From: Fibrobacteria bacterium
Lineage (GTDB): Bacteria; Fibrobacterota; Chitinivibrionia; Chitinivibrionales; FEN-1185
DNA length: 64,000 bases
Assembly: GCA_037447435.1 (NCBI GenBank)
Contig: JBBIGR010000021.1
Coordinates: 1-64,000 of the forward strand
Direction: 5' to 3'
The notes below the pieces were generated by a model. The model was not told where the DNA came from and ran no database searches. It worked only from the letters and a program-made list of their open reading frames with translations. Positions 1,163 to 22,988 of the stretch are shown piece by piece (the stretch's first letter is position 1; every line of letters begins with the position of its first letter). The translations under genes and the position numbers were made by a program.

Positions 1163-1840
1163 GTGGTGCTCTTTTTCAAAGGATTTTATAACGTGCTTAG
1201 CAGGCTTCTTTTCAACCTCTATGCAATAGATCGTCAGCATGTGCGTCGATGCATTATTTGGTTCGTTCGAAAAATTGAAAAAGGTGAATGCTACTCGGCA
1301 ACGCTTCGTAAAATCTTCAGCCACTATCACGACGTCACTATCGGCATGTATACTCACGGCGGTTGCTTCAGGGAATGGGCCGTAGATCCTCAAACAACCA
1401 TCGGAAGATATTGCTCAATAGCCAACGGGGTCAGGATTCTGACCGAAAACCATCCTATGGACTTTCAATCGATGCATGGGTTTTTCTTTAATCCGCGTTT
1501 CAAATACGCTAAAACAAACCTTGTACGGCGCAAACCATTGACAATTGGTAACGACGTTTGGATGGGTTACAATTCGATAATCCTGCCTAATGTTTCGAAT
1601 ATCGGCAATGGGGCGGTAATCGCGGCAGGCGCAGTTGTCAACAAAGACGTACCGCCGTATGCGGTTGTCGCGGGAAACCCGGCCAGAACCGTCCGATTTC
1701 GTTTTTCACCTTCAACAATAGAGAACCTTCAAAACAGCCGTTGGTGGGAAAAAGAAATCGACGACATTATTCCCCACATTCAAGATTTCCAACATCCCTT
1801 GGAAACCGCTCAAACGGTCCAAACTTTCACAGGAGAATAA
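1163..1840 (+). CDS. CatB/Vat-like hexapeptide-repeat O-acetyltransferase
   Basis: TTIGRYCSIA, NHP, IGNDVWMG, IGNGAVIAAGAVVNKDVPPYAVVAGNPAR, WW motifs. Start codon uncertain. Confidence 0.85.
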   Translation: MVLFFKGFYNVLSRLLFNLYAIDRQHVRRCIIWFVRKIEKGECYSATLRKIFSHYHDVTIGMYTHGGCFREWAVDPQTTIGRYCSIANGVRILTENHPMDFQSMHGFFFNPRFKYAKTNLVRRKPLTIGNDVWMGYNSIILPNVSNIGNGAVIAAGAVVNKDVPPYAVVAGNPARTVRFRFSPSTIENLQNSRWWEKEIDDIIPHIQDFQHPLETAQTVQTFTGE

Positions 1841-1842
1841 TC

Positions 1843-3489
1843 ATGATCGCATCCGACACTACTTATAGAGCTATCGCATCCGTTTTTGACGTGCCCGTTC
1901 TTTTGCATGAGCTCCTTGAACAGAGCGCGCGAACGCATCCTACTAAAACAGCGGTTATTTGTGGCGAAGAACGAGCGTCGTACGCTTTACTCAATACTTT
2001 GGCAAATAAATTTTGTAATGAGCTCCGGACGAGAGGTATACAACCGGGCAACATCATCGCACTCATTCATGAAAACAGCCTTGAGTTCATTGCCGCGTAC
2101 TTCGGCATACTCAAGGCCGGCGCCATTGTCGCGCCGCTCAATACCGACAGTAAGCCAGAAAGTTTACAAGCAATATTAACAGAGCTGCAGCCTCGCGCTC
2201 TGATAGCATCGGCTAAACAACTCGCAAAAACGGAATCATTCAAAGAAACCGTCTTTTCCCCTATGCTTGTCATCATCGGCGACTTTGGGGATTTCCCGAA
2301 CAATAAAAATATTCCTCACACGACAATACGGCGCATCGTTACGGATTGGACACCGGTCAACGACCCTAAAATCGACATTTCACCGGAGGCTATCGCAAGC
2401 ATCATTTACACTTCGGGTTCGTCCGGGCGCCCGAAGGGAGTCATATTGACACACAATAATATTATCGCGAATACCCGTTCGATTTGCGATTGCTTAAAAT
2501 TATCCCAAAACGACGTTCAAATGGTTGTGCTGCCTTTTTATTACGTATTCGGCCTTTCTTTGCTGCATACCCATATTGCGATTGGCGGAACGCTTGTGCT
2601 CAACAATCAATTCACCTTCACCGGCACCGTGATGCAGCAAATGATAAACGAACATGTCACGGGGTTTTCGGGTGTCCCCTCAACGTACGCGTATCTTTTG
2701 CATCGTTCGCCGTTGCGTGAAATGCGCGAACATCTGCCCGATTTACGGTATTGCTCGCAGGCGGGCGGTCATATGGCAAACAGTTTAAAACTCGATTTAC
2801 GAAGTGCATTACCCGATCATACGGATATCGTCATTATGTATGGAGCTACAGAGGCTTCGGCCCGTTTGACGTGGTTGAATCCGCAAAACTTTCTCAAGAA
2901 AATCGATTCCATCGGCAAGGAAATTCCCGATGTAGTTATCAAGATACTTGACGATAAGGGAATTGAAGTCGGCCCGGGCGAAATCGGAGAACTGGTTGCC
3001 GATGGCCCGAATATCATGCAGGGTTATTTTAAGGATCCAAACGGGACCTCACACGTGCTTACGGATAATGGTTATCGTACCGGCGACCTCGGCTATCGCG
3101 ACACAGACGGTTTTTTATTTGTTACCGGTCGTCGGGATAATCAATTGAAAATCGGCGGGAACAGAGTAGACCCTCAGGAAATCGAGGATATCATTATGGA
3201 ATCCGGTCTCATGGTGGAAGTCGCGGTCATAGGCGTACCCGATGAAATTCTCGGGGTCGTGCCCATCGCATTAATTGTATCGAAAACCCGAGAAACAGCC
3301 GGTGAAGATCTTTTCGTTTTCTGTTCCGCAAGGCTGCCGCATTACAAAGTCCCTCGATATTTTTTACCCGTCGCAGCGCTTCCTAAAAACGGAAACGGCA
3401 AAATAGATAAAAGCGAATGCATGGAAATGGTGATGCAATTGCAAAAGGCGCATGATGCTGCTTCGCAAACTCGGTACTCACATGTTTGA
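1843..3489 (+). CDS. AMP-forming acyl-CoA/acyl-ACP ligase (ANL superfamily)
   Basis: YTSGSSGRPKG, YGATE, YRTGD, PKNGNGK motifs. AGGAG RBS before ATG 1843. Confidence 0.9.
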   Translation: MIASDTTYRAIASVFDVPVLLHELLEQSARTHPTKTAVICGEERASYALLNTLANKFCNELRTRGIQPGNIIALIHENSLEFIAAYFGILKAGAIVAPLNTDSKPESLQAILTELQPRALIASAKQLAKTESFKETVFSPMLVIIGDFGDFPNNKNIPHTTIRRIVTDWTPVNDPKIDISPEAIASIIYTSGSSGRPKGVILTHNNIIANTRSICDCLKLSQNDVQMVVLPFYYVFGLSLLHTHIAIGGTLVLNNQFTFTGTVMQQMINEHVTGFSGVPSTYAYLLHRSPLREMREHLPDLRYCSQAGGHMANSLKLDLRSALPDHTDIVIMYGATEASARLTWLNPQNFLKKIDSIGKEIPDVVIKILDDKGIEVGPGEIGELVADGPNIMQGYFKDPNGTSHVLTDNGYRTGDLGYRDTDGFLFVTGRRDNQLKIGGNRVDPQEIEDIIMESGLMVEVAVIGVPDEILGVVPIALIVSKTRETAGEDLFVFCSARLPHYKVPRYFLPVAALPKNGNGKIDKSECMEMVMQLQKAHDAASQTRYSHV

Positions 3490-3724
3490 TCAAATATGGC
3501 ATTTTATCGTATCGAATTTTTTATTCGGCGATGCCGGCGAGCTCAAAGCATGTACACCGTTACTCGAAAGCGGAATCATCGATTCCACCGGTTTTCTCGA
3601 AATCATCGAATTTTTGGAATCCACATTCGCAATAACGATACAAGATCATGAACTTTTACCTCAAAATCTGAACACCATCGAAAATATTGTGCGGTTCATA
3701 GAGCATAAAAAAGGAAGAGAATAA
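3482..3724 (+). CDS. Acyl carrier protein
   Basis: 80 aa, acidic, GIIDSTG phosphopantetheine Ser motif. Overlaps the ligase stop. Confidence 0.85.
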   Translation: MFDQIWHFIVSNFLFGDAGELKACTPLLESGIIDSTGFLEIIEFLESTFAITIQDHELLPQNLNTIENIVRFIEHKKGRE

Positions 3725-5703
3725 TGTGCGGTTTAGCCGGATTTGTATCGTTAAGCAATAATACTCGCGCGGCCGGTTTATCGACGCTGATGACGATGGT
3801 ACGGAGTATGCAGCACCGCGGCCCCGACGAATCGGGGGTGTACATCGACGATCGAGCCGGATTGGGGCATTGTCGACTCAGTATTGTAGGGTTATTAGGC
3901 GGCGGTCAACCGATTCACGATGAAACCAAAACTTTATGGATTGTTTTTAACGGGGAAATATACAATCACTTCGAAATTCGCAGCCAACTCATTTTGCGCG
4001 GCCATCGGTTTTATACCAATACCGACTCGGAAGTGATTATCCACCTGTTCCAGGAAAAAGGCGAAAAATGCGTTGAAGATTTCAACGGGCAATTCTCTTT
4101 TGCCATTTGGGACTCCATTAAAGAAAAGCTTTTTCTGGCACGCGACCGCCTCGGGGTAAGACCTATGCACTATTCCGTTTACAACGACACCTTTTTTTTT
4201 GCTTCGGAAATAAAAGCGATTTTTACCGTACCCGGTTTTCCCCGTGAAATGGAAGAAACGTCTCTTGATCAGGTTTTTACTTTTTGGACAACATTGCCGG
4301 GCGGCACAGTGTTTAAAAACGTTTTCGAACTTTTACCGGGACATACGCTTTATGTAAACCACGGTTTGAAAAAACAAACAAAATACTGGGATATTCCGTT
4401 ATATCCCCGCGAAGCGCGATACGATTTTCCATTGCCCCGCATGATAGACGACATCAGAGAATTACTGATCGACTCCATAAAAATCCGGCTTCGCGCCGAT
4501 GTCGACGTCGGCGCATATTTAAGCGGCGGATTGGATTCGTCGGGAATAGCCGCCATGGTCGTACGCCATTTCAACACCAATGTCAAAACCTACGGTATTA
4601 CTTTTTCAGACAGTCGTTTTGACGAACGCATGTATCAACGCCTTATGGCAACATCCCTTTCTATCAACCATTCCGAAACAGAAGCGACAAACAATAAAAT
4701 CAGGGTAAATTTCGGTCGTGTCGTGTGGCATGTCGAAAAGCCGCTTCTGCGCACCGCACCAATTCCTTTATATCTTTTATCACAACAAGTGCATGCCGAT
4801 AACATCAAGGTTGTATTGACCGGTGAAGGGGCCGACGAATTTTTTGGCGGCTACGACATTTTTCGCGAAACGCTCGCTCGACATTTTTTGGCAAAAAAGC
4901 CATGCTCGGGGCTCAGATATAGGGCCATTGAAGAGTTATACCCCGAAATATTCGATTCCCAGCGCGCACGCCATTCGATGCATGCTTTTTTTTCGCAAGG
5001 ACTAACGGATATCGGCCATCCTTTTTTCTCGCATTTACCGCGGTGGAAAGCCGTGTGCAGGACAAAGGCTTTTTTTAGTTCCGACCTGAAAAACGCAGTG
5101 CAGGGATACGACGGGTTCGACGATTGCAAATCGCGGTTACCCCCCGATTTCGGCAACCTTGACATTGTAGGAAAAGCGCAATATTTGGAAATAATGATTT
5201 TTTTGAGCAATTACCTGCTTTCATCACAGGGCGACCGTGTGGCAATGGGAAATTCGGTCGAGATCCGTTTTCCCTATCTCGACCATCGGCTCCTCGAATA
5301 TGTGGGCCATGTACCGACGCATTGGAAAATCCTTGGGCTCGACGAGAAACATATTTTAAAAAGCGTCTTGTCGCGATTGCTTCCGCCGCAAATCGTACAA
5401 CGCCGTAAACAGGCGTATCGAGCGCCGGTACAAAACTGCCTTATTGACAAATTCGACACTGCGTTTACAGAATCCTATCTGACGGAAAAGAAACTAAAAG
5501 AAACCGGGCTGTTCGATCCGGCCAAAGTGGCTTTTCTGCTCGATAAAATCAGGTCTGGAAATGCGGGCAGCGAAACCGACGGAATGGCGCTCTCGGGAAT
5601 CGCTTCGTCCCAAATGGTACACGAATTATTTATCGCCGATTTCAGACCCGATTTGCCCGATTGCGAATTCGCCATTCTCGAAGATCACAGGTCCAAAGGA
5701 TAA
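3724..5703 (+). CDS. asnB: Asparagine synthase-like glutamine amidotransferase (AsnB family)
   Basis: N-terminal MCG, HRGPD, FNGEIYN, LSGGLDSS, TGEGADE, RFPYLD. Probably a glycan-tailoring paralogue given its context. Confidence 0.9.
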   Translation: MCGLAGFVSLSNNTRAAGLSTLMTMVRSMQHRGPDESGVYIDDRAGLGHCRLSIVGLLGGGQPIHDETKTLWIVFNGEIYNHFEIRSQLILRGHRFYTNTDSEVIIHLFQEKGEKCVEDFNGQFSFAIWDSIKEKLFLARDRLGVRPMHYSVYNDTFFFASEIKAIFTVPGFPREMEETSLDQVFTFWTTLPGGTVFKNVFELLPGHTLYVNHGLKKQTKYWDIPLYPREARYDFPLPRMIDDIRELLIDSIKIRLRADVDVGAYLSGGLDSSGIAAMVVRHFNTNVKTYGITFSDSRFDERMYQRLMATSLSINHSETEATNNKIRVNFGRVVWHVEKPLLRTAPIPLYLLSQQVHADNIKVVLTGEGADEFFGGYDIFRETLARHFLAKKPCSGLRYRAIEELYPEIFDSQRARHSMHAFFSQGLTDIGHPFFSHLPRWKAVCRTKAFFSSDLKNAVQGYDGFDDCKSRLPPDFGNLDIVGKAQYLEIMIFLSNYLLSSQGDRVAMGNSVEIRFPYLDHRLLEYVGHVPTHWKILGLDEKHILKSVLSRLLPPQIVQRRKQAYRAPVQNCLIDKFDTAFTESYLTEKKLKETGLFDPAKVAFLLDKIRSGNAGSETDGMALSGIASSQMVHELFIADFRPDLPDCEFAILEDHRSKG

Positions 5704-5711
5704 TTACCATT

Positions 5712-6692
5712 ATGAAACACACGCCCTTTTCCGCCAAGCTCCTCTCTATCGATTGTCAAAAGGAAACCGCCAGAATACTGCATACCCTAGTCGAATCGCT
5801 TCGGGCTTTTAAGCGTAAGGGCTTTGTCGTGGGGGTTTCCGGAGGAATCGACAGCAGCGTGACCCTTGCATTATGCACCATAGCCCTCGGTACCGACCGG
5901 GTCTTGGCCTTGCAGATGCCCGAACGTCACTCGGCCAAAGATTCTTTACATCTCAGCGATTTGGCAATCAGCCATTGTCAAGTAAAAAACATCCGGCACG
6001 ATATTTCTTCGACACTGGAGTCTTTGGGGTTTTACACGCATTACGACACTATCGTGCAGTCTATTATCCCGACTTACGGCAAAGGTTGGAAATCAAAAAT
6101 CGTTTTTCGGGGCGCAGTTCATGCAGGACATATGCCCCATTTTTCAATAGTGGCACAATCGCCTTTGGGCGATATTGTGAAGCATCGGCTCAATTATAAG
6201 CCGTATCTTGAAATTATTGCGGCCACAAATTTCAAGCAGCGTATACGCACCATGCTTGAATATTATCACGCCGACCGGAATAATTTTATTGTTGCAGGAA
6301 CGCCGAACCTTTTGGAACACGACCTTGGTTTTTTTGTCAAGCAAGGCGACGGAGCGGCCGATGTCAAACCCATTGCCCATTTGTACAAATCCCAAGTATA
6401 TCAGCTTGCAAAATACCTCGAGTTGCCCAATGAAATACGCGAGCAGGCTCCGACTACCGACACGTATTCTCTTGCGCAAGGACAGGATGAGTTTTTCTTC
6501 ACGCTGCCGTACGATAAAATGGATCTTTGCCTTTTAGGAAAAACGAAGGGCTATTCTCCCGGCGAAGTCGCGCCGGTTGCGGGTCTGACAACCGACATGG
6601 TAAACAACGTTTACAAAGACATATTATCAAAGAAACTGGCGGCCCGTTACCTGCATGCCCCGGCGATCACGGTCGGGAGATCTTCAGTTTAG
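5712..6692 (+). CDS. nadE: NH3-dependent NAD(+) synthetase-like protein
   Basis: GVSGGIDS PP-loop, NFKQRIR, GFFVKQGDG, PIAHLYKSQV. Confidence 0.8.
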   Translation: MKHTPFSAKLLSIDCQKETARILHTLVESLRAFKRKGFVVGVSGGIDSSVTLALCTIALGTDRVLALQMPERHSAKDSLHLSDLAISHCQVKNIRHDISSTLESLGFYTHYDTIVQSIIPTYGKGWKSKIVFRGAVHAGHMPHFSIVAQSPLGDIVKHRLNYKPYLEIIAATNFKQRIRTMLEYYHADRNNFIVAGTPNLLEHDLGFFVKQGDGAADVKPIAHLYKSQVYQLAKYLELPNEIREQAPTTDTYSLAQGQDEFFFTLPYDKMDLCLLGKTKGYSPGEVAPVAGLTTDMVNNVYKDILSKKLAARYLHAPAITVGRSSV

Positions 6693-12297: not shown

Positions 12298-12517
12298 CCC
12301 TTCCGAAAACACGGAGATTTTCTTGATTTTCATAGTTGTATTCTCCCGTATAAAACCGGTTTCCGAATTTCGTGAGCATGCGCATAAAAAAAATCCGTTC
12401 TTATTTATGCGAAGGTCTTTTTCCCACTATCGAGAATTATTGAAAAAATTCAAAACTTTTACCTTTTTTTTGCTGTTCGAGAAAAACCGTACTCCTTATT
12501 TCATTGATTTTGCCTAC

Positions 12518-12533
12518 GGGTACGGTATTTGCA
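12518..12533 (+). promoter_or_regulatory. Putative sigma54 promoter for the GT4/hemA cluster
   Basis: GGGTACGGTATTTGCA, GG-N10-GC, about 80 bp before ATG 12614. Confidence 0.55.
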
Positions 12534-12613
12534 ATAGGAAAAGAATCGGAACCTATCGCAGAGTGGCATTACTAAAAACGACCGCAGAATGCGGCAAAAA
12601 CAGGATCAATACA

Positions 12614-13789
12614 ATGAGAGTCTGCTTGGCGGCTTATACGAATTACGAAGGCGACAATCGCGTCCGGCGATATGCCGAAGCTCTTGTCAAAAGAGGGGAC
12701 AAAGTCGACATTGTTGCAATACGGCACCCCGGACAGCCCAAACGCGCAACCATTGCAGGGGTGGAAGTATACCGTATCCAAACGAGAAGACTCAATGAGA
12801 AACGAAAAATAGATTACCTGTTTAAGCTTATATTCTTTCTTGTCAGGTCGGCATGGTTCATTACCTTTCGGCATGTCCGGCATCCTTACTCCATAATACA
12901 CATCCATTCGGTACCGGATTTCGAGGTTTTTGCCGCAATCGTTCCTAAATTGACAGGCGCTAAAATAATCCTCGATATCCATGACATTGTGCCCGAATTT
13001 TTTGCCGGGAAATTCAATTCCGGTAAAAAGAGCCTGCTGTATCATGCTCTCATTATAATGGAAAAACTATGCTGCGCGTTCAGCGATTACGTCATTATTG
13101 CCAATGACCTATGGCGCGAAAGGCTTATTGAGCGGTCGGTCTCCCCAAACAAATGCATCACCGTGCTCAACTATCCCGACCTCTCGATATTCAAGAGCAA
13201 TTTTCCGCGGAAAAACAACGACCATTTCATCATGATGTATCCGGGCACGCTTGGATACCATCAGGGGCTCGACATAGCGATACGGGCACTTTCCAGAATC
13301 AACACGGCTGTTCCGCTCGCTCAACTTCATATCTATGGAATAGGGGCCGAAGAAAAGGCTTTACGATCGCTTGCCCACGACTTGGGGCAGGATTCCAGGG
13401 TACTTTTTCAGGGTATATATCCGCTTGATGAAATTGCGAATAAAATGGCTTCCGCTGATCTGGGAATCGTTCCAAAGCGAGCCGACGGATTCGGTAACGA
13501 GGCTTTCAGCACGAAAATTTTCGAATTCATGGCCCTTGGCGTGCCGTTGCTCGTTTCGGGTACGAAAATCGACAAATTCTATTTTAGCAACTCGGTAGTT
13601 ACCTTTTTCGAATCGGGCAACGATGCCGACATGGCTGAAAAAATCATTTATTTGGCGGGCAACGCAAAAGAACGACAGCGATTAACTCAAAATGCCCACA
13701 ACCTCATACGCATGAATAATTGGGATTTAAAAAAACAGCACTATTTAGAGCTGGTAGACTCGTTGCTTAAACCCGCACAAAAAAAGTAA
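12614..13789 (+). CDS. GT4-family glycosyltransferase
   Basis: DNRVRRYAEAL, IHIHSVPD, LDIHDIVPE, YPGTL..HQG, STKIFEFMALGVP. Likely start MRVCLAAY. Confidence 0.88.
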   Translation: MRVCLAAYTNYEGDNRVRRYAEALVKRGDKVDIVAIRHPGQPKRATIAGVEVYRIQTRRLNEKRKIDYLFKLIFFLVRSAWFITFRHVRHPYSIIHIHSVPDFEVFAAIVPKLTGAKIILDIHDIVPEFFAGKFNSGKKSLLYHALIIMEKLCCAFSDYVIIANDLWRERLIERSVSPNKCITVLNYPDLSIFKSNFPRKNNDHFIMMYPGTLGYHQGLDIAIRALSRINTAVPLAQLHIYGIGAEEKALRSLAHDLGQDSRVLFQGIYPLDEIANKMASADLGIVPKRADGFGNEAFSTKIFEFMALGVPLLVSGTKIDKFYFSNSVVTFFESGNDADMAEKIIYLAGNAKERQRLTQNAHNLIRMNNWDLKKQHYLELVDSLLKPAQKK

Positions 13790-13927
13790 ACAAGGAACAT
13801 GTTTGGCTAATAATTATTGGCACATTTTTTGATCTAAATATCATTGAAATAACTTTTTGCAATTTACCGGGATGAATATGTTTTGAATTTTACTACGATG
13901 CTAGAGAATATAAAATGGGGCGATACA

Positions 13928-15046
13928 ATGCATTTCGTGATTATAGGACTCAGTCATAAAACCGCTCCTGTTGAAGTCCGTGAAAAAGTTTCCTTTTCCA
14001 CGGGGCAACAAAAAAACGCGGTACGAACACTCTTGGAAAGCGGTACTGCTTCTGAAGCAATGATACTTTCCACTTGCAACCGGGTCGAGATACACGCACT
14101 CATGCATGCGCCGGATGCTGTTGCATTGAAACAATTCCTTATCGACTTTCATCCGAACGCCGGGAATATAGACGGACATCTTTACGCGCATATCGATACC
14201 GATGCCGTGCGTCATGTGTGTATGGTTGCCGCAGGGCTCGATTCAATGGTCATCGGTGAACCACAAATCTTCGGTCAATTAAAAGACGCCTTGAATACCG
14301 CATTGGAATTCGACATGCCTCAGCCGACACTGAAACGGCTTTTCGACCGCATTTTCAGTATAGTAAAGAAGGTGCGATCGAAAACAAAAATCGGTGAATT
14401 GCCGGTTTCGGTAAGTTATGCAGCTGTCAATCTGGCCCAGTCCATGTTCGGCTCTATAAAGGGAAAGCGGGTTATGTTGCTCGGCGCAGGAAACACCGGC
14501 GCTCTCACGCTCCGAAACCTTATGAGTCACGGTGTCGGTGAAGTATTTATTGTCAACAGGACATTTCAAAAAGCCGTCGAAGTTTCTGAAAAATTCAATG
14601 CCACGCCCATCATGATCCATGAATTAGCCGAATATCTGCCAAAGGTGGACATTCTTATCAGCTCTTTAACGGTTCCCGATTTCTTCATTCGGCGCACGGA
14701 CATGGAAAAGGCCCTGCAAAAACGTATCGGTTCCCCGCTCTTTATAATAGACATTTCCGTACCGCGGAGTTTGGATCCCGACATTGGGACCCTTGCCGGC
14801 GCGACTCTTTACAATATAGACCATCTTCATGCGATCAGCGAAAACAACACGGAAAAACGTAAAATCGAGGTTCAAAAAAGCATGCTGATCATAGAGCAAA
14901 GTACGGCCGATTTTTTACAATTCGGTCTTTTTACCGACGGTAAAGTTCCCCCCGATTTTTTTCGGGCGATCGGTCCCAATACGATGAATATTTCCGAGCG
15001 GGAAATCGACCTTACGGAACAAGCACAGGATGGAGTTTCAATCTAA
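13928..15046 (+). CDS. hemA: Glutamyl-tRNA reductase with a short/divergent C-terminus
   Basis: GLSHKTAPVEVRE, STCNRVE (catalytic Cys), GLDSMVIGEPQIFGQ, SVSYAAV, GAGNTG, DISVPR. Confidence 0.92.
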   Translation: MHFVIIGLSHKTAPVEVREKVSFSTGQQKNAVRTLLESGTASEAMILSTCNRVEIHALMHAPDAVALKQFLIDFHPNAGNIDGHLYAHIDTDAVRHVCMVAAGLDSMVIGEPQIFGQLKDALNTALEFDMPQPTLKRLFDRIFSIVKKVRSKTKIGELPVSVSYAAVNLAQSMFGSIKGKRVMLLGAGNTGALTLRNLMSHGVGEVFIVNRTFQKAVEVSEKFNATPIMIHELAEYLPKVDILISSLTVPDFFIRRTDMEKALQKRIGSPLFIIDISVPRSLDPDIGTLAGATLYNIDHLHAISENNTEKRKIEVQKSMLIIEQSTADFLQFGLFTDGKVPPDFFRAIGPNTMNISEREIDLTEQAQDGVSI

Positions 15047-15148
15047 TTATGATTGCAAAAAGCAGCCTTTGCAATCCTTTAATTTAAATTGACAGTTGGA
15101 ATCGAAAGGCATCCACGACCACAACGTTTGGCGAAAAAAGGATTTGAA

Positions 15149-16768
15149 ATGCAAAAATATCTACGATTCGTCCGCGGTCTCATGAAATACTTCACCACCC
15201 GCATCAAGCCGGAGGAAGCCCTCGCTCAAGCCCAAAAACTTCTTTCGGAACGGTATGCGGCACGGGAAAAGAATTTTTTACATATCGTCGAAAAAGGGAT
15301 TTTCGGATATAAAAAGAGCCCGTACATTCCCCTGCTCGAATCGAAAAAAATTTCCTATGACAACATACAACAATGGGTAGAAAACGACGGTATCGAAAAA
15401 ACGCTTGCACTTTTGCAACATGAGGGGGTTTACTTTACCGTTGATGAATTCAAAGGCAAAATACCGGTAAAGAGGAGCGGGCTCAGCTTCACCTGTGCGG
15501 AAAAAATGTTCGACAATCCGTTTTTGGCCGTCGCATACGAGGTGCGGAGCGGAGCAACGCGAAGTGCAGGCACAAGAATCCGCATCGATTTCGACTATCT
15601 TGTCCAACGATCATTATACGATGCGTTTCTGCTCAATATCCACGATGTTCTTACGGCACCCATTGCAAATTGGTTTCCGCTTTTCCCCGGAGCCCCGGGC
15701 ATCAATTCATCGCTCCGATTTTCGCATATCGGCAATCCGCCTAAAAAATGGTTTTCACAGGTGGAAAAAGCCCAAGTAAAAGTCAATTGGGAAAAACGCT
15801 TTGGGACCGGACTGATATTTTTCATCGGCAGGCTTTACGGAGTTCCCTTGGCCAGACCCGAATACGTCAGTCTGAATTACGCGCATACCGTGGCACAATG
15901 GGCCGCCGCCATGGTTGCCGAACACGGCTCCTGTGTCGTGTATACCTTTGCGACTTCTGCGGTAAGGGTATGTATGGCGGCCCAGGAAAACGGCCTTGAC
16001 ATAAAAGGCGTTCGATTCTTTGTTACCGGCGAACCTCTTACCGCTCAAAAAAAGTTCGAGATAGAATCTGCAGGGGCAAAGGCAATTCCGGTGTATGGAA
16101 TTTCCGAGGCAGGGGTTATTGCCGCGGGATGCGGCTTTGATTCGGGAATAAGCGATGATTGCCATTTGTACAAGGATACGACGGCGGTAATCGCCCATTC
16201 GCATACGGTTGAGCATTTCGACGCAACGGTCAATTCATTTCTCTTTACGTCGCTTTTGTACGAAGCACCCAAGCTTCTGTTGAATGTCGGCATGGGAGAC
16301 TACGGAATCGTAGAGGAAAAACCCTGCGACTGCGCATTTGGAAAGCTTGGTTTTCATACCCGCATCTCATCCATACGCAGTTATGAAAAGCTGACCGGCG
16401 AAGGCGTTACCTTTGTCGATACCGATTTCATCAAAATCATCGAAAAAGACCTGCCCAAAAGGTTCGGAGGGTCCAGTACCGATTATCAGTTGATAGAGGA
16501 AGAGGATTCCAAGGGTATCAGTCATTTGCATCTGATTGTGAGTCCCCGCCTCAACGGGCTCGATGAAAAAAACCTTGTTGAAACGTTTATAGGTCTCTTA
16601 AGAACATCGGAGGCTTCGCCGGAATCGTGGGCCCAATCCGGCACGCTCATGTGGAACCAGGCTCGCACCTTACGCGTCAAGCGTGAGTTCCCCATCGCGA
16701 CGGCAAGCGGTAAAATTTTGCCGTTTCATCTGGTGCGGAAAAAAACAACCTCCTCAATAATCATATAA
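15149..16768 (+). CDS. PaaK / F390-synthetase-like adenylate-forming ligase
   Basis: Degenerate P-loop RSGATRSAG, TGE, YGISEAG, MGDYG, C-terminal TASGKI lysine motif. Confidence 0.65.
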   Translation: MQKYLRFVRGLMKYFTTRIKPEEALAQAQKLLSERYAAREKNFLHIVEKGIFGYKKSPYIPLLESKKISYDNIQQWVENDGIEKTLALLQHEGVYFTVDEFKGKIPVKRSGLSFTCAEKMFDNPFLAVAYEVRSGATRSAGTRIRIDFDYLVQRSLYDAFLLNIHDVLTAPIANWFPLFPGAPGINSSLRFSHIGNPPKKWFSQVEKAQVKVNWEKRFGTGLIFFIGRLYGVPLARPEYVSLNYAHTVAQWAAAMVAEHGSCVVYTFATSAVRVCMAAQENGLDIKGVRFFVTGEPLTAQKKFEIESAGAKAIPVYGISEAGVIAAGCGFDSGISDDCHLYKDTTAVIAHSHTVEHFDATVNSFLFTSLLYEAPKLLLNVGMGDYGIVEEKPCDCAFGKLGFHTRISSIRSYEKLTGEGVTFVDTDFIKIIEKDLPKRFGGSSTDYQLIEEEDSKGISHLHLIVSPRLNGLDEKNLVETFIGLLRTSEASPESWAQSGTLMWNQARTLRVKREFPIATASGKILPFHLVRKKTTSSIII

Positions 16769-16779
16769 AGGAGATTATC

Positions 16780-17766
16780 ATGCCTTTTCCCATTCATCGC
16801 ATGCGGCGGCTACGGCGTACCACCGAACTTCGAACTATAGTCCGGGAAAACATGCTTTCCGTCGACGATTTTGTAATGCCGCTCTTTATCGTACCGGGTA
16901 ATTCGGTCAAAAAAGAAATCGAAACATTGCCCGGAAATTATCACTTGTCCGTTGATATGCTCGTCGAAGAGGCCAAGGAGATACGGGATCTGGGAATTAC
17001 CACCGTTCTTTTATTCGGCATCCCCGGGGAGAAAAACGAATCGGCTTCGGAGGCGTACAATCCCGACGGCACGACGCAAAAGGCTATTGCGGCATTGAAG
17101 AAACAGGTTCCCCAGCTTGTGGTGATAAGCGATATCTGTCTGTGCGAATACACCACAAGCGGCCACTGCGGCATAATGGAAAACGGGTACTTGCTAAACG
17201 ACAAGTCTCTCGAGATCATCGGAAAAATAGCAAGGTCGCATGCTGCCGCCGGCGCCGATTTGGTCGCACCGTCGGCCATGCTCGACGGCCAGATCCAGAC
17301 CATACGTTCGTCTCTTGACAAGGACGGGTTCGTCAATACCGCTATCATGGCATATTCCGTCAAGTATTCATCGTGTCTCTTCAACCCCTTTTTCAAACAC
17401 GGCACCAAATCGGTCGTATCGTTCGGCGATAAAAAAACGCATCAGATGGACTATTTTAACTCCCGCGAAGCAATGCGGGAGATAGACCTCGACGTTGCGG
17501 AGGGCGCAGACATCATCATGGTCAAACCGGGACTTTTTTACCTCGATATCGTCGGTAAGGCAAAAGCCGGATTTCCCCTGCCTCTTGCCGTTTATAATGT
17601 CAGCGGCGAATACGCCATGCTTCACGCTGCCGTAAAAGCGGGAATTTTCGATTTGAAAACCATTCTTATGGAAACCCTTGCCTGCTTCAAACGCGCCGGC
17701 GCCGATCTCATCATCACCTACGGAGCTAAAGAAGCCGCCCGTTTTTTAAGCGAAGGCCCGCAGTGA
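16780..17766 (+). CDS. hemB: Porphobilinogen synthase (ALA dehydratase)-family protein with a divergent lid
   Basis: RMRRLR, DICLCEYTTSGHCG (three-Cys Zn site), YSVK and MVKP Schiff-base lysines, YNVSGEY, RAGADLIITY. Confidence 0.92.
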   Translation: MPFPIHRMRRLRRTTELRTIVRENMLSVDDFVMPLFIVPGNSVKKEIETLPGNYHLSVDMLVEEAKEIRDLGITTVLLFGIPGEKNESASEAYNPDGTTQKAIAALKKQVPQLVVISDICLCEYTTSGHCGIMENGYLLNDKSLEIIGKIARSHAAAGADLVAPSAMLDGQIQTIRSSLDKDGFVNTAIMAYSVKYSSCLFNPFFKHGTKSVVSFGDKKTHQMDYFNSREAMREIDLDVAEGADIIMVKPGLFYLDIVGKAKAGFPLPLAVYNVSGEYAMLHAAVKAGIFDLKTILMETLACFKRAGADLIITYGAKEAARFLSEGPQ

Positions 17767-18941
17767 ATAAGATCAAAATACTGCATGTTTACAAAAGCTT
17801 TAACGTATACAACGGGCTTATCGAAATACTTTCTATTCTCGCGCAGAACATGGACCTCGAAAAGTTCGAGCTCGGCATCTGCGTTTATAATTATGACGAA
17901 AACGAGGCCGGCCGCCAGTTTGAAAAATTGGGCGGAAAAATATATTCTCTCGAGATCGGACACGGCGTACCATCCAAGTTCCGGGAGTTTTCCAGCCTCG
18001 TTGCTTTTTTCAAGAAATATCGGCCCGACATCGTGCAAACGCACGTGCTCAAAGCAAACTTGTACGGCGTCATCGCGGCAAAACTTGCAAAAGTACCTAT
18101 TGTCATAGGAACGGAGATGACGCTTAAAGACACGGCGCCGACCCGTTTCGGCCGTTTCCGGGACAGGCTTCTGCAGCCTTTTGTCAGGCAAATCATCAAC
18201 AAATGCGATAGTTTTATCGTGACATCGGAGTTTATTAAACGGGAATGGTACGGCAATGCGGCGCCGGGAAAGGTCGCGGTTGTTTATCCGCCTTTCAACT
18301 TGGTAAAGTTGGAATTGTCACATCGGGCAACATCACCAGTTCCTTCGCAGGAAAACAAAACCAGACTCTGTTACGTTGGAAGGCTTTCCGAAGAAAAGGG
18401 AGTTCGGACATTACTCGACGCGATGAAAATCGTCGTCGACCGAAAAACAAAGGCAACGCTGACAATCGTCGGCACCGGTCCGCTCGAAGCCGAACTCAAG
18501 CGTCGCGCATCCGCAATGGACGCCAACGAAGCGATCATCTTTACCGGGTATAAGCCGAACGTGTTTGAAGTTTTAAAAGACATGGATGTTTTTGTATTGC
18601 CGTCGCGCTCCGAGGGGAGCCCGATCGTGGTTCTGGAAGCGATGGCAATGTCCTTGCCGGTCGTCGCCACTGCGGTGGGCGGTACTGTAGAACTCGTACG
18701 ACAGGGAAAAACCGGAATTCTCGTACCGCACAACGACCCCGGAAAACTTGCCGAAGCGCTCATCGACCTTTCGGACAACAGGGAAAAAGCGCAGACTTTA
18801 GGCGCGGCAGGCCACGACGTCGTATTTTCCGATTTTCACCCTGCGCAATTTACAAACCGTCTCCAGAACATTTACATACAGTTATACCGTTCGAAAACGA
18901 TCTCGCAACGCAATACCTCCGGGCAACCGGAATCACTTTAG
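17763..18941 (+). CDS. GT4-family glycosyltransferase
   Basis: RPDIVQTH, VGRLSEEKG, PSRSEGSPIVVLEAMA. GTG start overlaps the hemB stop. Confidence 0.9.
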   Translation: MNKIKILHVYKSFNVYNGLIEILSILAQNMDLEKFELGICVYNYDENEAGRQFEKLGGKIYSLEIGHGVPSKFREFSSLVAFFKKYRPDIVQTHVLKANLYGVIAAKLAKVPIVIGTEMTLKDTAPTRFGRFRDRLLQPFVRQIINKCDSFIVTSEFIKREWYGNAAPGKVAVVYPPFNLVKLELSHRATSPVPSQENKTRLCYVGRLSEEKGVRTLLDAMKIVVDRKTKATLTIVGTGPLEAELKRRASAMDANEAIIFTGYKPNVFEVLKDMDVFVLPSRSEGSPIVVLEAMAMSLPVVATAVGGTVELVRQGKTGILVPHNDPGKLAEALIDLSDNREKAQTLGAAGHDVVFSDFHPAQFTNRLQNIYIQLYRSKTISQRNTSGQPESL

Positions 18942-18962: not shown

Positions 18963-20273
18963 ATGAATGTTGCAATTATCGGTGCAGGCATGGCGGGCAT
19001 GGGGGCCGCGTATTATCTGCAAAGCAAGCAAGGCGAACTGCCGTTATCGGTCGAGCTGTTTGAAAAAGAAACGCGGCCGGGGGGTATTTGCAAAACTGAG
19101 AGAAGCGGCAAATTTCTTTTCGACTATACCGGACATCTCATCCATTTTAAAGACCCGGGATTTCGAGAGCTCGTGTCCGGTCTTCTTCACGATGATTTCA
19201 ATTCCCTTGTCCGAAGCTCTTGGATATATTCCCATAACGCATTCACCCGGTACCCTTTTCAGGCTAATCTGTACGGACTGCCCCCTGATGTCATCGTCGA
19301 CTGCCTGTACGAGTACAGCAAGGAATATTTCAACCCGATCAAAAATCCTGCGGTTACCTATGAAGATTGGATCCTTTCGCATTTCGGCAGCGGAATCGCG
19401 CGGCATTTCATGATGCCCTACAATGAAAAACTTTACAAAAGGCACCCGCGCGATCTGGCAGCCGACTGCGCCGGGCGTTTTGTCCCTGACTCCGACCTTA
19501 AACTTCTGATAAGAGGCGCGTTATCGGACTCCGAACCGCAGCTTGGGTACAATGCAACCTTTTTATATCCTAAAACCGGCGGAATCGAGACCCTGAGTTC
19601 CGCGCTGGCCTATGGACTCGGCAACATACATTTGAGTTCGGATATTGTTTCGATTCACCCGGAAACTAAAACAATGGTTACCGGCACAGGAGACAACATT
19701 CGCTACGATGCGCTTATATCGACTCAGCCTATTACGCACTTAATTTCTTCAATGAACGGAGTTCCAAAAGCCGTTATGGATGCTGCAAAGCAGCTTTCCC
19801 ATGTTTCAGTGTTCAATTTGAACTTAGGCGTCAAGGGATTGACCGGAACCAAGCATTGGCTCTATATTCCCGAGCCAAAGTATCCTTTTTATCGTATCGG
19901 ATTTTACCACAATTTCTCCAAGGATCTTGTTCCGCCCGGACACGGATCGCTCTATATCGAAGTTTCCTATGATCCGATCGAAGGAATCGATGCGGCAGCC
20001 ACGACTGATAAAATCATCTCCGATATTATTGCCATCGGTATACTCCCGAACAGGGAATCCATAGTGACACAGAAAGTCATCAACGTTCCGTTTGCTTATG
20101 CAATTCACGACCGGCAGCGTCAACGATCGCTCGATGTTATCAATGAATACCTTCATGCACAACTTATTTTCTCGGTTGGCCGATTCGGCTCCTGGGGATA
20201 TACATCGATGGAGGACTCTTTTTTACAAGGAAAGAATGCCGCCGAGCAAATAGTAAAGCGGATCGCCGTTTAG
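18963..20273 (+). CDS. FAD-dependent oxidoreductase (HemY-like / UDP-galactopyranose mutase-like clade)
   Basis: IIGAGMAG Rossmann motif, E...GG.C, FDYTGH, PYNEK, FLYPKTGG, GRFGSWGYTSMED. Confidence 0.75.
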   Translation: MNVAIIGAGMAGMGAAYYLQSKQGELPLSVELFEKETRPGGICKTERSGKFLFDYTGHLIHFKDPGFRELVSGLLHDDFNSLVRSSWIYSHNAFTRYPFQANLYGLPPDVIVDCLYEYSKEYFNPIKNPAVTYEDWILSHFGSGIARHFMMPYNEKLYKRHPRDLAADCAGRFVPDSDLKLLIRGALSDSEPQLGYNATFLYPKTGGIETLSSALAYGLGNIHLSSDIVSIHPETKTMVTGTGDNIRYDALISTQPITHLISSMNGVPKAVMDAAKQLSHVSVFNLNLGVKGLTGTKHWLYIPEPKYPFYRIGFYHNFSKDLVPPGHGSLYIEVSYDPIEGIDAAATTDKIISDIIAIGILPNRESIVTQKVINVPFAYAIHDRQRQRSLDVINEYLHAQLIFSVGRFGSWGYTSMEDSFLQGKNAAEQIVKRIAV

Positions 20274-20307: not shown

Positions 20308-21384
20308 ATGGATCTACGAAGTTTCATTGCCGTGCTTGAACAATCGGGAAATCTGAAACGGATTTCGCATGCGATCGATTGGAAATATGAACTCGGGGCG
20401 TATTGCCGGAGCCATCCGGAGCCATTGCTCTTCGAGAATATTCTCGGCTATGAGGGGTTCAGTTTATTTGCAAACGGTCTTTGCAACCAGACGCATATCG
20501 CCCGGGCATTATCGCTTGACCCGCTGGTATCAAGAAAAAAGCTGATCTCCGCAATACGGGACCGCCTGAAAAAACCCGAAACGCCGGTGACCGTCGCGAA
20601 GAGCTCGGTTTTCGATAATTCGCTTGACGACCTGCCTGCACTACCGTCACCGTGGTGGCATCAATCCGACGGCGGACGATACCTGGGCACCTGGCATGTA
20701 AACGTGACGCGCGACCGGGATACGGGAATACATAATTGCGGAATTTACAGAATGCAATTGATTGACAGTCGCACAAGTACCGTTTCCGTCTCACCAAATA
20801 GCCACCTGGCCCTTCATTTCGCCAAAGCGGAAAAAGACCAGCGCCCGCTCGAAATGGCCGTATGCATCGGCGTCAGCGAAAGCCTAATTATGGCCTCGGC
20901 TGCCGCGTTTCCGATGTCCGCGTGCGAATATGATTTTGCCGGCGCTCTCGAACAAAAGCCCTTTGAGCTTATTTCATGCAAAACGATTGACCTCAAGGTG
21001 CCTTCTGATGCCGAATTTGTCATCGAAGGCGTTATCCGGCCAGGTGAACGTGTCACGGACGGGCCGTTTTTCGATTACGCCGGAGTACCGAATGTCAATC
21101 CAAACGCCCTGGTGTTCGAAGCAACGGCATTATGGCACCGGTCTAATCCGATTTTCCGCGGTTGCGCAGTCGGCATCGCCGGCGCCGAAGACCATCAGAT
21201 TTTTTCGTTTCTGGCGCCTTTGGGACTCGTCGATTTTCACGGCTCACCCGTCCGCCAGACCGCGCAAAACTTCCTTCTTCGCAACAAACTGTTTTCGGCT
21301 TTGCAGTTATTTACCAGGGCCGGGCATCTGCTTCATGGAAAGCATCCGAAAAACGATATTGCGTCGGGCAAGGTAGCATCATAA
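20308..21384 (+). CDS. UbiD-family prFMN-dependent decarboxylase, short form (358 aa)
   Basis: DLRSFIAVLE, PLLFENI, DGGRY, NCGIYRMQ, VPSDAEFVIEG, DGPFFDYAG. Confidence 0.85.
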   Translation: MDLRSFIAVLEQSGNLKRISHAIDWKYELGAYCRSHPEPLLFENILGYEGFSLFANGLCNQTHIARALSLDPLVSRKKLISAIRDRLKKPETPVTVAKSSVFDNSLDDLPALPSPWWHQSDGGRYLGTWHVNVTRDRDTGIHNCGIYRMQLIDSRTSTVSVSPNSHLALHFAKAEKDQRPLEMAVCIGVSESLIMASAAAFPMSACEYDFAGALEQKPFELISCKTIDLKVPSDAEFVIEGVIRPGERVTDGPFFDYAGVPNVNPNALVFEATALWHRSNPIFRGCAVGIAGAEDHQIFSFLAPLGLVDFHGSPVRQTAQNFLLRNKLFSALQLFTRAGHLLHGKHPKNDIASGKVAS

Positions 21385-22370
21385 TGAGCCTTGCAATACC
21401 AGCTGCTTCGATTTTAGCCGTGGCCATTGCGTACTTGGTTATCCGATCTTTACGGAGCAGAGTAAGCGTTACGCATCACACCGAGTGGTCGATCGGCATT
21501 TACACCGGCAATTCACCGCTTTCGCTCGGCCCCGATTTTAAAACCGCGGAAAAGGGATACGTCCTTTCGGCTGCCGACATATCCGATGTCAGGGCCCGCT
21601 TCGTCGCAGACCCTTTTTTATTCCGAAAAGGGCCTCAATGGCATCTGTTTTTTGAAGTGTACAATATCGGCGCAAATAGAGGAGAAATCGGTCTTGCAAC
21701 AAGCACCGACGGTTTCCATTATTCCTATGAACGTATTGTACTTTCCGAACCGTTTCATGTTTCTTATCCGTATATTTTTGCCCATGAAGAAGCAATGTAT
21801 ATGGTTCCCGAAAGTGCGGAAGCAAAATCGATACGCTTGTATAAAGCCGTTCAATATCCGTATTCCTGGACATTTGTCAAAGAACTCGTCAAAGGATCGT
21901 ACTGCGATTCATCGATATTCAATTTTCAAGGCAAATGGTGGATTTTTACCTGTTTTGAACCGTCTCACGATAAAAGTCCGGAACCGCGCCATAATGATCT
22001 CCACCTCTTTTTTGCCGATTCTCTGCAGGGTCCATTTATCGAACATCCCAAAAGCCCTATTGTCAAGGGCAACGCCCATGTGGCCAGGCCCGGCGGAAGG
22101 ATAATTCTGTTTGATGGTAAAATCATCCGTTTTGCGCAAGACAGCCAACCGACCTATGGAAAAAGTCTTAATGCCCTACAGGTCACCGTACTCACGGAAA
22201 CCGATTTTGAGGAACAGGCTTTGGGAGTCAATCCGATTCTCACTGCAAGCGGTAAAGGATGGAACAGACACGGCATGCATCATCTGGATGCACACGAGCT
22301 TGAAAACGGTACATGGATCGGATGCGTGGATGGGTATAGAAAATTTTATTCGATTCACCTGGAATATTAA
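21384..22370 (+). CDS. Membrane-anchored five-bladed beta-propeller protein (GINT1 N-terminal / GH43-32-like)
   Basis: N-terminal hydrophobic helix; FVADPF, LFFE, FHVSYPYIF, YMVPES, ARPGG, QDS, GMHH motifs. ATG overlaps the UbiD stop. Confidence 0.7.
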   Translation: MSLAIPAASILAVAIAYLVIRSLRSRVSVTHHTEWSIGIYTGNSPLSLGPDFKTAEKGYVLSAADISDVRARFVADPFLFRKGPQWHLFFEVYNIGANRGEIGLATSTDGFHYSYERIVLSEPFHVSYPYIFAHEEAMYMVPESAEAKSIRLYKAVQYPYSWTFVKELVKGSYCDSSIFNFQGKWWIFTCFEPSHDKSPEPRHNDLHLFFADSLQGPFIEHPKSPIVKGNAHVARPGGRIILFDGKIIRFAQDSQPTYGKSLNALQVTVLTETDFEEQALGVNPILTASGKGWNRHGMHHLDAHELENGTWIGCVDGYRKFYSIHLEY

Positions 22371-22421: not shown

Positions 22422-22988
22422 ATGAAACGATTGATTATTGGAATTACCGGAGCTTCGGGAGCCATTTATGCCACGTATCTTCTTGCCGCCATACGGGAGT
22501 CCGTGGAATCGCACGTGATCGTATCGCCAGCCGCCGAACAGGTGCTTCGGCTAGAATGCGGTAAAACCCTTGACGATATCAATAAATTGGCCTCGTTTAC
22601 TTACAATTATTGGGACATAGCGGCAAAACTGGCGAGCGGAAGTTTTAAAACCGACGGCATGATCATAGTTCCGTGTTCCATTAAAACCCTTTCGGCGGTA
22701 GCGAATTCTTTTTCCGAATCTCTGATTGTCCGCGCCGCCGATGTTACGCTAAAACAAAGACGAAGGCTTGTTCTTGCTATAAGAGAAACGCCGTTACATG
22801 CGGGGCACATCGATCTTATGCAACGGGTATGTTCGATGGGCGCGGTGGTCTTCCCGTTATCACCGGGATTTTACTATTCACCGGAATCGATCGAAGACCT
22901 TGCAAACCATATTGCAGGTAAAATCCTTGACCTCTTCGACATAGAGAACGCCACGTTCAAGCGATGGGAAGGCAAGCCTTCCGTTTGA
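22422..22988 (+). CDS. ubiX: Flavin prenyltransferase
   Basis: GITGASG, ASGSF, PCSIKTL, RAADVTLKQRR, RETPL, PGFY. Confidence 0.93.
   Translation: MKRLIIGITGASGAIYATYLLAAIRESVESHVIVSPAAEQVLRLECGKTLDDINKLASFTYNYWDIAAKLASGSFKTDGMIIVPCSIKTLSAVANSFSESLIVRAADVTLKQRRRLVLAIRETPLHAGHIDLMQRVCSMGAVVFPLSPGFYYSPESIEDLANHIAGKILDLFDIENATFKRWEGKPSV

Follow-up and report, generated by a model that had tools for sequence, protein, structure and literature searches.

To our knowledge, porphobilinogen synthase (PBGS, HemB) has been treated as an enzyme of a single reaction that feeds the tetrapyrroles. This reaction is described as a condensation of the Knorr type, with the acetate side coming from the second substrate (PMC13564367). 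In human PBGS, Ser279, Tyr318, Lys199 and Lys252 are given as the ligands of the P-site, and Arg209, Arg221 and zinc as those of the A-site (accessible part of PMC13465085). In the human sequence, Arg209 lies ten residues past the first of the two lysines, Lys199. We take the arginines of the PFR and DRK motifs in the lid to be Arg205 and Arg216 of the E. coli enzyme.

Among the known systems, the one that the locus described here would resemble most in its way of working, while sharing none of its ring chemistry, is the triad forming the 2-amino-3-hydroxycyclopent-2-enone (C5N) unit of moenomycin, bafilomycin and related actinomycete products (PMC4525017). Both appear as a small mobile gene set with its own ALA, diverted from tetrapyrroles, and with adenylating enzymes that build or attach the ring, but the C5N set comprises a cyclising ALA synthase, an ALA-CoA ligase and an amide synthase, and the available text of the source includes neither PBGS nor UbiD in it (PMC4525017). 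The present gene set differs from this triad in that ALA would come from HemA and HemL and the ring would be formed by a PBGS paralog; no ALA synthase occurs among the recurrent neighbour families scanned, the ALA genes being those of glutamyl-tRNA reductase and HemL. Another likeness is to clorobiocin, which carries a proline-derived pyrrole on the sugar of the antibiotic. The pyrrole-2-carboxyl unit of this compound is methylated by the B12-dependent radical SAM enzyme CloN6 (PMC9204698), and 12 of our 80 loci combine a putative pyrrole acid unit with a B12 radical SAM gene, which is set beside CloN6 by type only. No earlier description of the module was found in the literature searched, which consisted of titles and the first parts of abstracts and left most subscription journals outside its coverage.

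The window analysed here, a stretch of 64,000 nucleotides from a Fibrobacteria bacterium, carries the gene of a HemB paralog, hereafter the variant HemB, within a cassette embedded in a polysaccharide locus (Table 1). Compared with zinc-dependent PBGS (PF00490), with which it shares the fold, the Schiff-base lysine pair, the three-cysteine zinc site, the P-site serine and tyrosine, the lid glutamine and Glu234, the variant HemB differs by a one-residue insertion in the lid, by lysine instead of arginine at both A-site positions, by histidine instead of tyrosine and, in most members, by alanine instead of Ser165. It also stands in a separate clade, is linked to a ligase and a UbiD and not to hemC or hemD, and is kept in genomes where hemC was not found.

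Table 1. Features of the variant HemB cassette and of the variant HemB gene, in positions of the window.
Feature	Position	Strand	Remarks
GT4 glycosyltransferase upstream of the cassette, part of the polysaccharide locus around it	12323..13789	+	
Cassette HemA, glutamyl-tRNA reductase	13928..15046 (ORF opens at 13883)	+	TIGR01035, 332 bits, cut-off 210
PaaK-fold adenylate-forming ligase (predicted)	15149..16768 (ORF opens at 15089)	+	no Pfam/NCBIfam family
Variant HemB, PBGS-family paralog, 328 aa	16780..17766	+	Pfam ALAD, E 5e-131
Asp118 and Cys120/Cys122/Cys130 zinc site	17131..17169	+	intact
Ser165	17272..17274	+	kept in the HemB of the window
Variant lid, Lys195 to Asp224	17362..17451	+	inserted Phe, Lys206, Lys218, His221 for Tyr, Gln222 kept
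Codon of the inserted lid Phe	17389 or 17392	+	
Lys206, first-Arg column	17395	+	
Lys218, second-Arg column	17431	+	
GT4 glycosyltransferase	17763..18941	+	4-base overlap with the stop of the variant HemB
FAD-dependent oxidoreductase, amino-oxidase fold	18963..20273	+	accessory, 5/80 loci
Short UbiD, 358 aa	20308..21384	+	catalytic Arg present, both catalytic acids Asp, C-terminal oligomerisation domain missing
GINT1_N beta-propeller, glycoside-hydrolase-like protein	21384..22370 (ORF opens at 21162)	+	start inferred, one-base overlap with the UbiD stop
UbiX prenyl-FMN synthase	22422..22988	+	

According to a tblastn search of the host genome, its sole UbiX and sole UbiD both belong to this cassette. 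The cassette HemA of the window gave no match to the C-terminal dimerisation domain GlutR_dimer and its C-terminus has diverged, while the HemA of another cassette (L246) does have this domain. A row of genes at 1163-6692, located 7 kb upstream of the cassette and coding for LbH acetyltransferase-like, acyl-CoA ligase-like, AsnB-like amidotransferase and NadE-like proteins, might contribute amide-forming reactions to the same polysaccharide. Scans for promoters (21 vs 15.8) and terminators (14 vs 14.2) in the window stayed at the level of shuffled sequence.

By all general measures, the protein belongs to the PBGS/ALAD family. It scores 437 bits against PF00490 (cut-off 24.6) and 442 against the NCBIfam porphobilinogen synthase model (cut-off 297), its relatives are annotated in public sources as 'porphobilinogen synthase', and the subfamily is hidden beneath this ordinary annotation. 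The fold appears ordinary as well, because the AlphaFold2 model (pLDDT 92) superposes on the Chlorobium ALAD 1w1z with a TM of 0.95 and an rmsd of 1.2; within the lid, the model is helical at residues 199-208 and of low confidence at 214-216. The original prediction had listed the Schiff-base lysines, the three-cysteine zinc site and the P-side serine and tyrosine as intact, and every one of these residues was found: Lys195, Lys249, Cys120/122/130, Ser275 and Tyr314, which by offsets and motifs correspond to human Lys199, Lys252, Cys122/124/132, Ser279 and Tyr318. Throughout 171 distinct members of the subfamily, both lysines and Ser275 are present without exception and Tyr314 in 170, while Asp118, Gln222 and the Mg-site Glu234 are invariant. 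The cysteine triad typical of zinc-dependent PBGS occurs in 200/200 variant sequences, compared with 41/52 housekeeping copies. The other 11 of the 52 housekeeping HemBs do not show the regular triad pattern, and several Acidobacteria housekeeping HemBs match the Pfam model in two pieces, which suggests an insertion in the metal loop.

The lid is the part in which the subfamily departs from this picture. The stretch 17341-17460 corresponds to residues 188-227, and on re-reading it matched exactly the sequence from which the original prediction had concluded that the A-side lid was rewritten. Counting ten residues from the first Schiff-base lysine leads to arginine in 52/52 housekeeping copies and in 116 of the 123 parsable sequences among 150 diverse representatives, and to phenylalanine in the variant HemB, which does not have the canonical lid with this arginine and no insertion. 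The columns of the lid were then compared in an alignment of 171 distinct variants, collected as homology matches and as HemBs beside ligase matches with no selection by lid pattern, with 34 housekeeping HemBs of carrier genomes (those parsed by the alignment script; 52 entered the tree analysis) and 116 diverse HemBs (kept from the 150 representatives at 290-360 aa, minus one variant fragment). One column, occupied by phenylalanine in 171/171 variants, is a gap in all 34 housekeeping and all 116 diverse sequences. The first-Arg column holds lysine in 156 of the 171 variants, arginine in nine, histidine in three and other residues in three, compared with arginine in 34/34 housekeeping and 103/116 diverse HemBs. 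In the second-Arg column lysine is found in 171/171 variants and arginine in 34/34 housekeeping copies, the diverse set having 74 arginines and 33 lysines among its 116 sequences, so that a basic second A-site residue together with the lid glutamine, as in canonical PBGS, is present in every variant (Lys218 and Gln222). Tyr221 is replaced by histidine in 170/171. The column of Ser165, presumably a contact of the A-side amine, holds alanine in 163/171 variants and serine in 34/34 housekeeping and 109/116 diverse HemBs; the HemB of the window is one of seven subfamily members that keep the serine.

At the level of the alignment, the lid change is a one-residue insertion plus an arginine-to-lysine replacement, by which the charge would be kept and repositioned. 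The claim of a rewritten lid therefore holds in so far as a distinct lid is present in 171/171 variants, but not in the sense that charge had been removed, since the first-Arg column holds lysine. What had been offered as a caveat, that the lid is one residue longer and that the following lysine might replace the arginine, turned out to be the rule across the subfamily (Lys/Arg in 165/171). As the two lysines and Gln222 are kept, the A-side probably still binds a carboxylate. Three other accounts of the lid were discarded: sequencing error or private drift, since the 120 best homologues (8000 scored) all have the same lid type; a lineage-wide housekeeping variant, since the lid occurs in 0/52 housekeeping copies, a search which the original prediction had named as the comparison that could overturn it; and loss of the A-side charge, since lysine stands in both Arg columns. 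The positions that distinguish the subfamily cluster in the same region, with 8 of 14 diagnostic positions against housekeeping HemBs, and 4 of 6 against diverse HemBs, lying within the 23 residues 200-222, Ser165Ala being another of the latter. A binomial test for 7/12 diagnostic positions in the lid gave P 5e-6, a value that is partly circular, as 80 of the sequences behind it had been picked by a lid pattern; we rest on the alignment of the 171 unselected variants instead. One protein (P0130) represents a different HemB with lysine at the first-Arg position, no insertion, a histidine near the second position and the cysteine triad kept, and the representatives P0212, P0233 and P0237 also have rewritten lids; judging from their sequences, these four may be further repurposed HemB subfamilies.

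The host genome, which is 99.6% complete, has a second, canonical hemB on another contig, in an operon with hemA, hemC, cobA/hemD-like and hemL genes, in agreement with the earlier view that the HemB of the cassette is not the housekeeping one. The two proteins are 50% identical. In a quick maximum likelihood tree (midpoint root), 85 variant and 52 housekeeping rows fell on opposite sides of one branch with an SH-aLRT of 100, and in terms of sequence the variant HemB is a distinct HemB clade and a dedicated paralog. The exact lid pattern, which is strict and undercounts, was used on GTDB representatives and gave 99 loci: 77 in Acidobacteriota, 7 in Fibrobacterota, 6 in Nitrospirota, 2 each in Planctomycetota and Spirochaetota, one in each of four other phyla, and one unassigned. 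Judging from kinship labels and coordinates in common, the host probably belongs to the same order as the Chitinispirillaceae loci of Fibrobacterota. A further hemB match is present in 68/80 of the carrier genomes whose loci have flanks.

These 80 exact-pattern loci with flanks were used for counting the neighbours. UbiD is present in 71/80, a PaaK-fold ligase in 63/80, any of three ligase families in 72/80, and ligase and UbiD together in 68/80; HemA follows with 34/80, a FemAB-like GNAT with 16/80, a B12 radical SAM protein with 12/80, and HemL and UbiX with 6/80 each. Eight loci fall outside the three ligase families. Two of them, in Brocadiaceae, carry PaaK-like genes, and four, in Nitrospirota (L030, L040, L063 and L078), pair the variant HemB with an A-PCP-TE protein and a PPTase and have no cassette UbiD (two of each pair type of these substitutes were checked or clustered); of the last two, one has a ligase elsewhere in the genome and one lies on a short contig. 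An adenylating enzyme of some kind is thus found in 78/80 loci, and in most loci the ligase gene lies directly 5' of the variant hemB. The reciprocal search, limited to the best 80 of 335 metagenome matches of the ligase, led to the same association: where 1.1 kb or more of downstream DNA is available, HemB is present in 63/65 loci, its lid being of the variant type in all and canonical in 0/63, and where 4.5 kb or more is available, UbiD is present in 33/37. The linkage of the variant HemB to an adenylating enzyme is near-obligate, and the coupling to the adjacent ligase anticipated from the single locus extends to the family.

In Fibrobacterota, twelve more loci present the order seen in the window, hemA-(hemL)-ligase-variant hemB-GT4-FAD enzyme-ubiD-GINT1-(ubiX) with small losses. 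Recurrent neighbours are glycosyltransferases, a flippase, an O-antigen ligase, an exosortase and nucleotide-sugar enzymes, while glycan genes are few near many of the Acidobacteria loci. The B12-binding radical SAM gene lies 3' of the module in its 12 loci (for example L045:6960-8579); its best NCBIfam match, TIGR04190, is below cut-off, and it is a candidate ring methylase. Other arrangements were also seen. In one member of the Chitinispirillia (L026, genome G024), the variant HemB, the ligase with hemL, and the short UbiD are placed on three contigs (C5, C15 and C8) and hemC is absent; in one Acidobacteriota locus (L062:11450-13639), an insertion splits the ligase gene and no cassette UbiD is found, so this module is possibly decaying. 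In L078, the variant HemB has a hemA-hemC-cobA operon close by, with the two on different strands. In a plasmid search, none carried the ligase, and only distant matches to the B12 radical SAM gene were obtained.

In regard to the partner enzymes, the ligase matched no Pfam or NCBIfam family, and a profile search led to PDB 9s3l with an E of 2e-5. Its model (pLDDT 82) matches the PaaK-type BT_0428, PaaK1, NatL2, AjiA1 and ClxA at 12-16% identity, Foldseek giving E values of 2e-15 for BT_0428 and 3e-15 for PaaK1, and the Atlas a similar lead. With this fold and with conserved columns at the adenylation motifs, it is predicted to be an ANL enzyme of the PaaK type, although it differs from the named enzymes by a TM of about 0.5 or less, a longer N-terminus and the lack of a family model. 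Some of the nearest folds are titled CoA ligases and others are not; NatL2, AjiA1 and ClxA presumably work without CoA.

Most of the module UbiDs (63/71) are short, about 350-390 aa, and have no oligomerisation domain, UbiD_C giving no match in the short form and being found in the long one. Among 61 parsed short UbiDs, 60 have aspartate at both acid positions and one has glutamate followed by aspartate; the other 8/71 UbiDs are full length, have the usual glutamate pair and always occur alongside a FadD-like ligase, and wherever such a ligase is present the full-length form takes the place of the short one. The catalytic features are otherwise those of UbiD enzymes: in 45 aligned short UbiDs, Arg148 and Asp256 are invariant and Asp251 is kept in at least 90%, and UbiX is adjacent in the window. 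The short UbiDs also share an invariant short C-terminal motif. Their nearest solved relatives are 7pda at the top, which we take to be a phenazine carboxylate decarboxylase, followed by 6h6v and PA0254. The last of these, HudA, is reported to decarboxylate pyrrole-2-carboxylate and 3-methylpyrrole-2-carboxylate, but not pyrrole-3-carboxylate, and also to carboxylate pyrrole (accessible part of PMC7976604). Together with other heteroaromatic UbiDs it shares with the short form the UbiD_N and prFMN-binding domains and the arginine with two acids, and the Fibrobacterota cassettes likewise carry a cognate UbiX, but the short form is distinguished by the missing UbiD_C, the double aspartate and the biosynthetic context (PMC7976604, PMC8379154, in the parts available). 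Single Glu-to-Asp variants of Fdc1 are stated to remain active (PMC5818171, in part), whereas the active site of UbiD is described as lying at the interface with the oligomerisation domain, which forms half of it (PMC8379154, in part). As the short UbiD does not have this active-site-completing domain, it is unusual and may not be a plain decarboxylase.

The relation to tetrapyrrole synthesis was followed in 226 Fibrobacterota genomes that were at least 85% complete, and those scoring more than 520 bits against the profile of the variant were taken as carriers. There are 19 such genomes, in which the identity of the variant rests on cassette order and coordinates shared with known loci. In eight of them, from four genera and 86-100% complete but not closed, the variant is the only hemB. 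The usual co-occurrence of PBGS with HemC is absent there, as hemC is missing from 8/8 and hemD from 7/8, while the 11 carriers with two hemB matches all have hemC. No statistic is offered for this, because the genomes are kin and unclosed. The supply of ALA is retained: hemL is present in 8/8 single-hemB carriers (three times in the cassette, once partial at a contig end, once just under cut-off) and in 0/5 relatives without any hemB, and in the five single-hemB carriers tested the cassette copy is the only hemA. One Spirochaetota carrier is also without hemC and hemD, and a hemD match is found in two hemC-negative carriers. As the variant HemB is kept where hemC is missing, its product probably does not feed tetrapyrroles, and taking all the data together we regard a non-tetrapyrrole role as very likely.

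The explanation that we consider best, at a probability of roughly 0.45, is that the variant HemB condenses two different substrates, ALA and an amine-free 2-oxo-acid, to form a pyrrole-2-carboxylate; the UbiD would then decarboxylate this compound, and the ligase would couple it to a glycan. HemA and HemL would supply ALA, and the intact P-site would bind it. The core contains no gene whose product would make a special partner, so the A-side substrate should be ALA, the product of the ligase or a central metabolite, and the partner could well be a common metabolite, with 2-oxoglutarate as the best guess and oxaloacetate as the next. 2-Oxoglutarate is ALA with the aminomethyl group replaced by a carboxyl, and its condensation with ALA would be expected to give 3-(carboxymethyl)-4-(2-carboxyethyl)pyrrole-2-carboxylic acid. 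An amine-free 2-oxo-acid of this kind would fit a Lys/Lys/Gln site in which Ser165 can be lost while the zinc ligands are strictly conserved. UbiD enzymes act on ring acids or alpha,beta-unsaturated acids, neither of which PBG contains, and the module core has no oxidase to make such an acid; the cross-condensation would place the carboxyl on the ring directly, as pyrrole-2-carboxylate, for decarboxylation by the UbiD. The interchangeable ligases could then adenylate the carboxyl that is left, which would be transferred to a surface glycan as an ester or amide, and decoration of a surface polysaccharide is predicted from the gene neighbourhood. The original prediction is in this way partly supported, in that its idea of a different partner would be the best reading of the variant HemB. 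Several observations speak against this explanation: lysine in both Arg columns together with invariant Gln222 and Asp118 is compatible with normal binding of ALA, ordinary PBGS often has a lysine at the second position too (33/116), and the HemB of the window keeps Ser165. Furthermore, 2-oxoglutarate would suit the original arginines too, so that the identity of the partner is weakly constrained, the four Nitrospirota loci have no cassette UbiD, and a housekeeping use is possible in five hemC-positive carriers with a single hemB.

The alternative that survives best, though we find it doubtful, is that the enzyme makes ordinary PBG from two ALA, with lysine standing in for arginine, and that the module diverts this PBG from tetrapyrroles. 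The ligase would then activate the side-chain acid, the atypical UbiD would carboxylate the free alpha position or perform other chemistry, and the lid would tune product release or channelling. Besides the conserved basic residues, Gln222, Asp118, the cysteine triad and Glu234, this is favoured by the reverse, pyrrole-carboxylating activity of HudA, by the absence from the core of a gene for a second substrate, and by the five hemC-positive genomes, out of 80 carriers, in which the variant is the only hemB found. Those five are fragmented assemblies, in which hemB is absent from the hemA-hemC-cobA region; in two relatives hemB stands alone, and a missed canonical hemB is plausible. Against PBG as the product stand an insertion never tolerated in the 34 housekeeping and 116 diverse HemBs, the loss of Ser165 in 163/171 and the histidine for Tyr221 in 170/171. 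A canonical enzyme would also serve in such a module, yet none with a canonical lid was found in the 63 ligase-selected loci (best 80 of 335 matches), and 68/80 carriers keep a further hemB.

The ligase could instead act first, as the original prediction had suggested, converting ALA to a thioester or amide so that HemB would take a carboxyl-blocked derivative as its A-side substrate. The position of the ligase gene directly before the variant hemB, the adenylating enzyme in 78/80 loci and the ALA-CoA ligases of the C5N pathway (accessible part of PMC4525017) would agree with it, and the insertion, combined with the shortened side chains, might widen the lid enough to admit a pantetheine arm. 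The idea is weakened by lysine at both Arg positions and by invariant Gln222, kept as for a free carboxylate; the same lid moreover accompanies at least four unrelated ligase types, and a blocked ALA supplies no ring carboxyl for UbiD. We therefore regard it as improbable. Less probable again is another heterocycle derived from ALA or glutamate semialdehyde, such as a dimer of the pyrazine type or a semialdehyde-derived pyrrole. It would account for HemA in 34/80 loci with HemL in only 6/80, for the missing dimerisation domain in the HemA of the window and for the top rank of 7pda among solved relatives of the short UbiD, but hemL is present in 8/8 hemC-less carriers, inside the cassette in several, and absent from 5/5 hemB-less relatives, another cassette HemA has the domain, and the pyrrole-forming residues are all intact. 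A back-up or inhibitor-resistant housekeeping PBG synthase, for instance as self-resistance to a cluster-made ALA analogue, could draw on the score above the NCBIfam cut-off, the L078 neighbourhood and the five hemC-positive assemblies with no other hemB, but is very improbable, as eight hemC-less Fibrobacterota with neither a tetrapyrrole use for PBG nor a pathway to protect keep the enzyme.

Returning to the cross-condensation of ALA with an oxo-acid, we hold it to be a possibility somewhat short of even odds that the variant HemB is the first natural PBGS paralog whose substrate has changed, namely a cross-Knorr pyrrole synthase. It would then found a heme-independent monopyrrole pathway which, with a domain-truncated UbiD and a new PaaK-fold ligase, adds pyrrole groups to the surface polysaccharide in Acidobacteriota of soil, in Fibrobacterota and in other phyla. 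More generally, the HemB subfamily is real and stands at the centre of a conserved pathway that is probably independent of heme. As it is kept with its own ALA supply where the next enzyme of heme synthesis is missing, the chemistry of PBGS seems to serve metabolism in a second way, no matter which product is formed. If the partner is an oxo-acid, this would be a natural mixed-pyrrole enzyme, useful for biocatalysis and for probing the specificity of the A-site directly. Further points of interest in the module are a UbiD without the domain considered to complete its active site, a ligase family that is so far unclassified, and what may be a new polysaccharide modification in the abundant Acidobacteriota of soil and peat. 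In such genomes, a hemB match should not be taken as a sign that heme is made.
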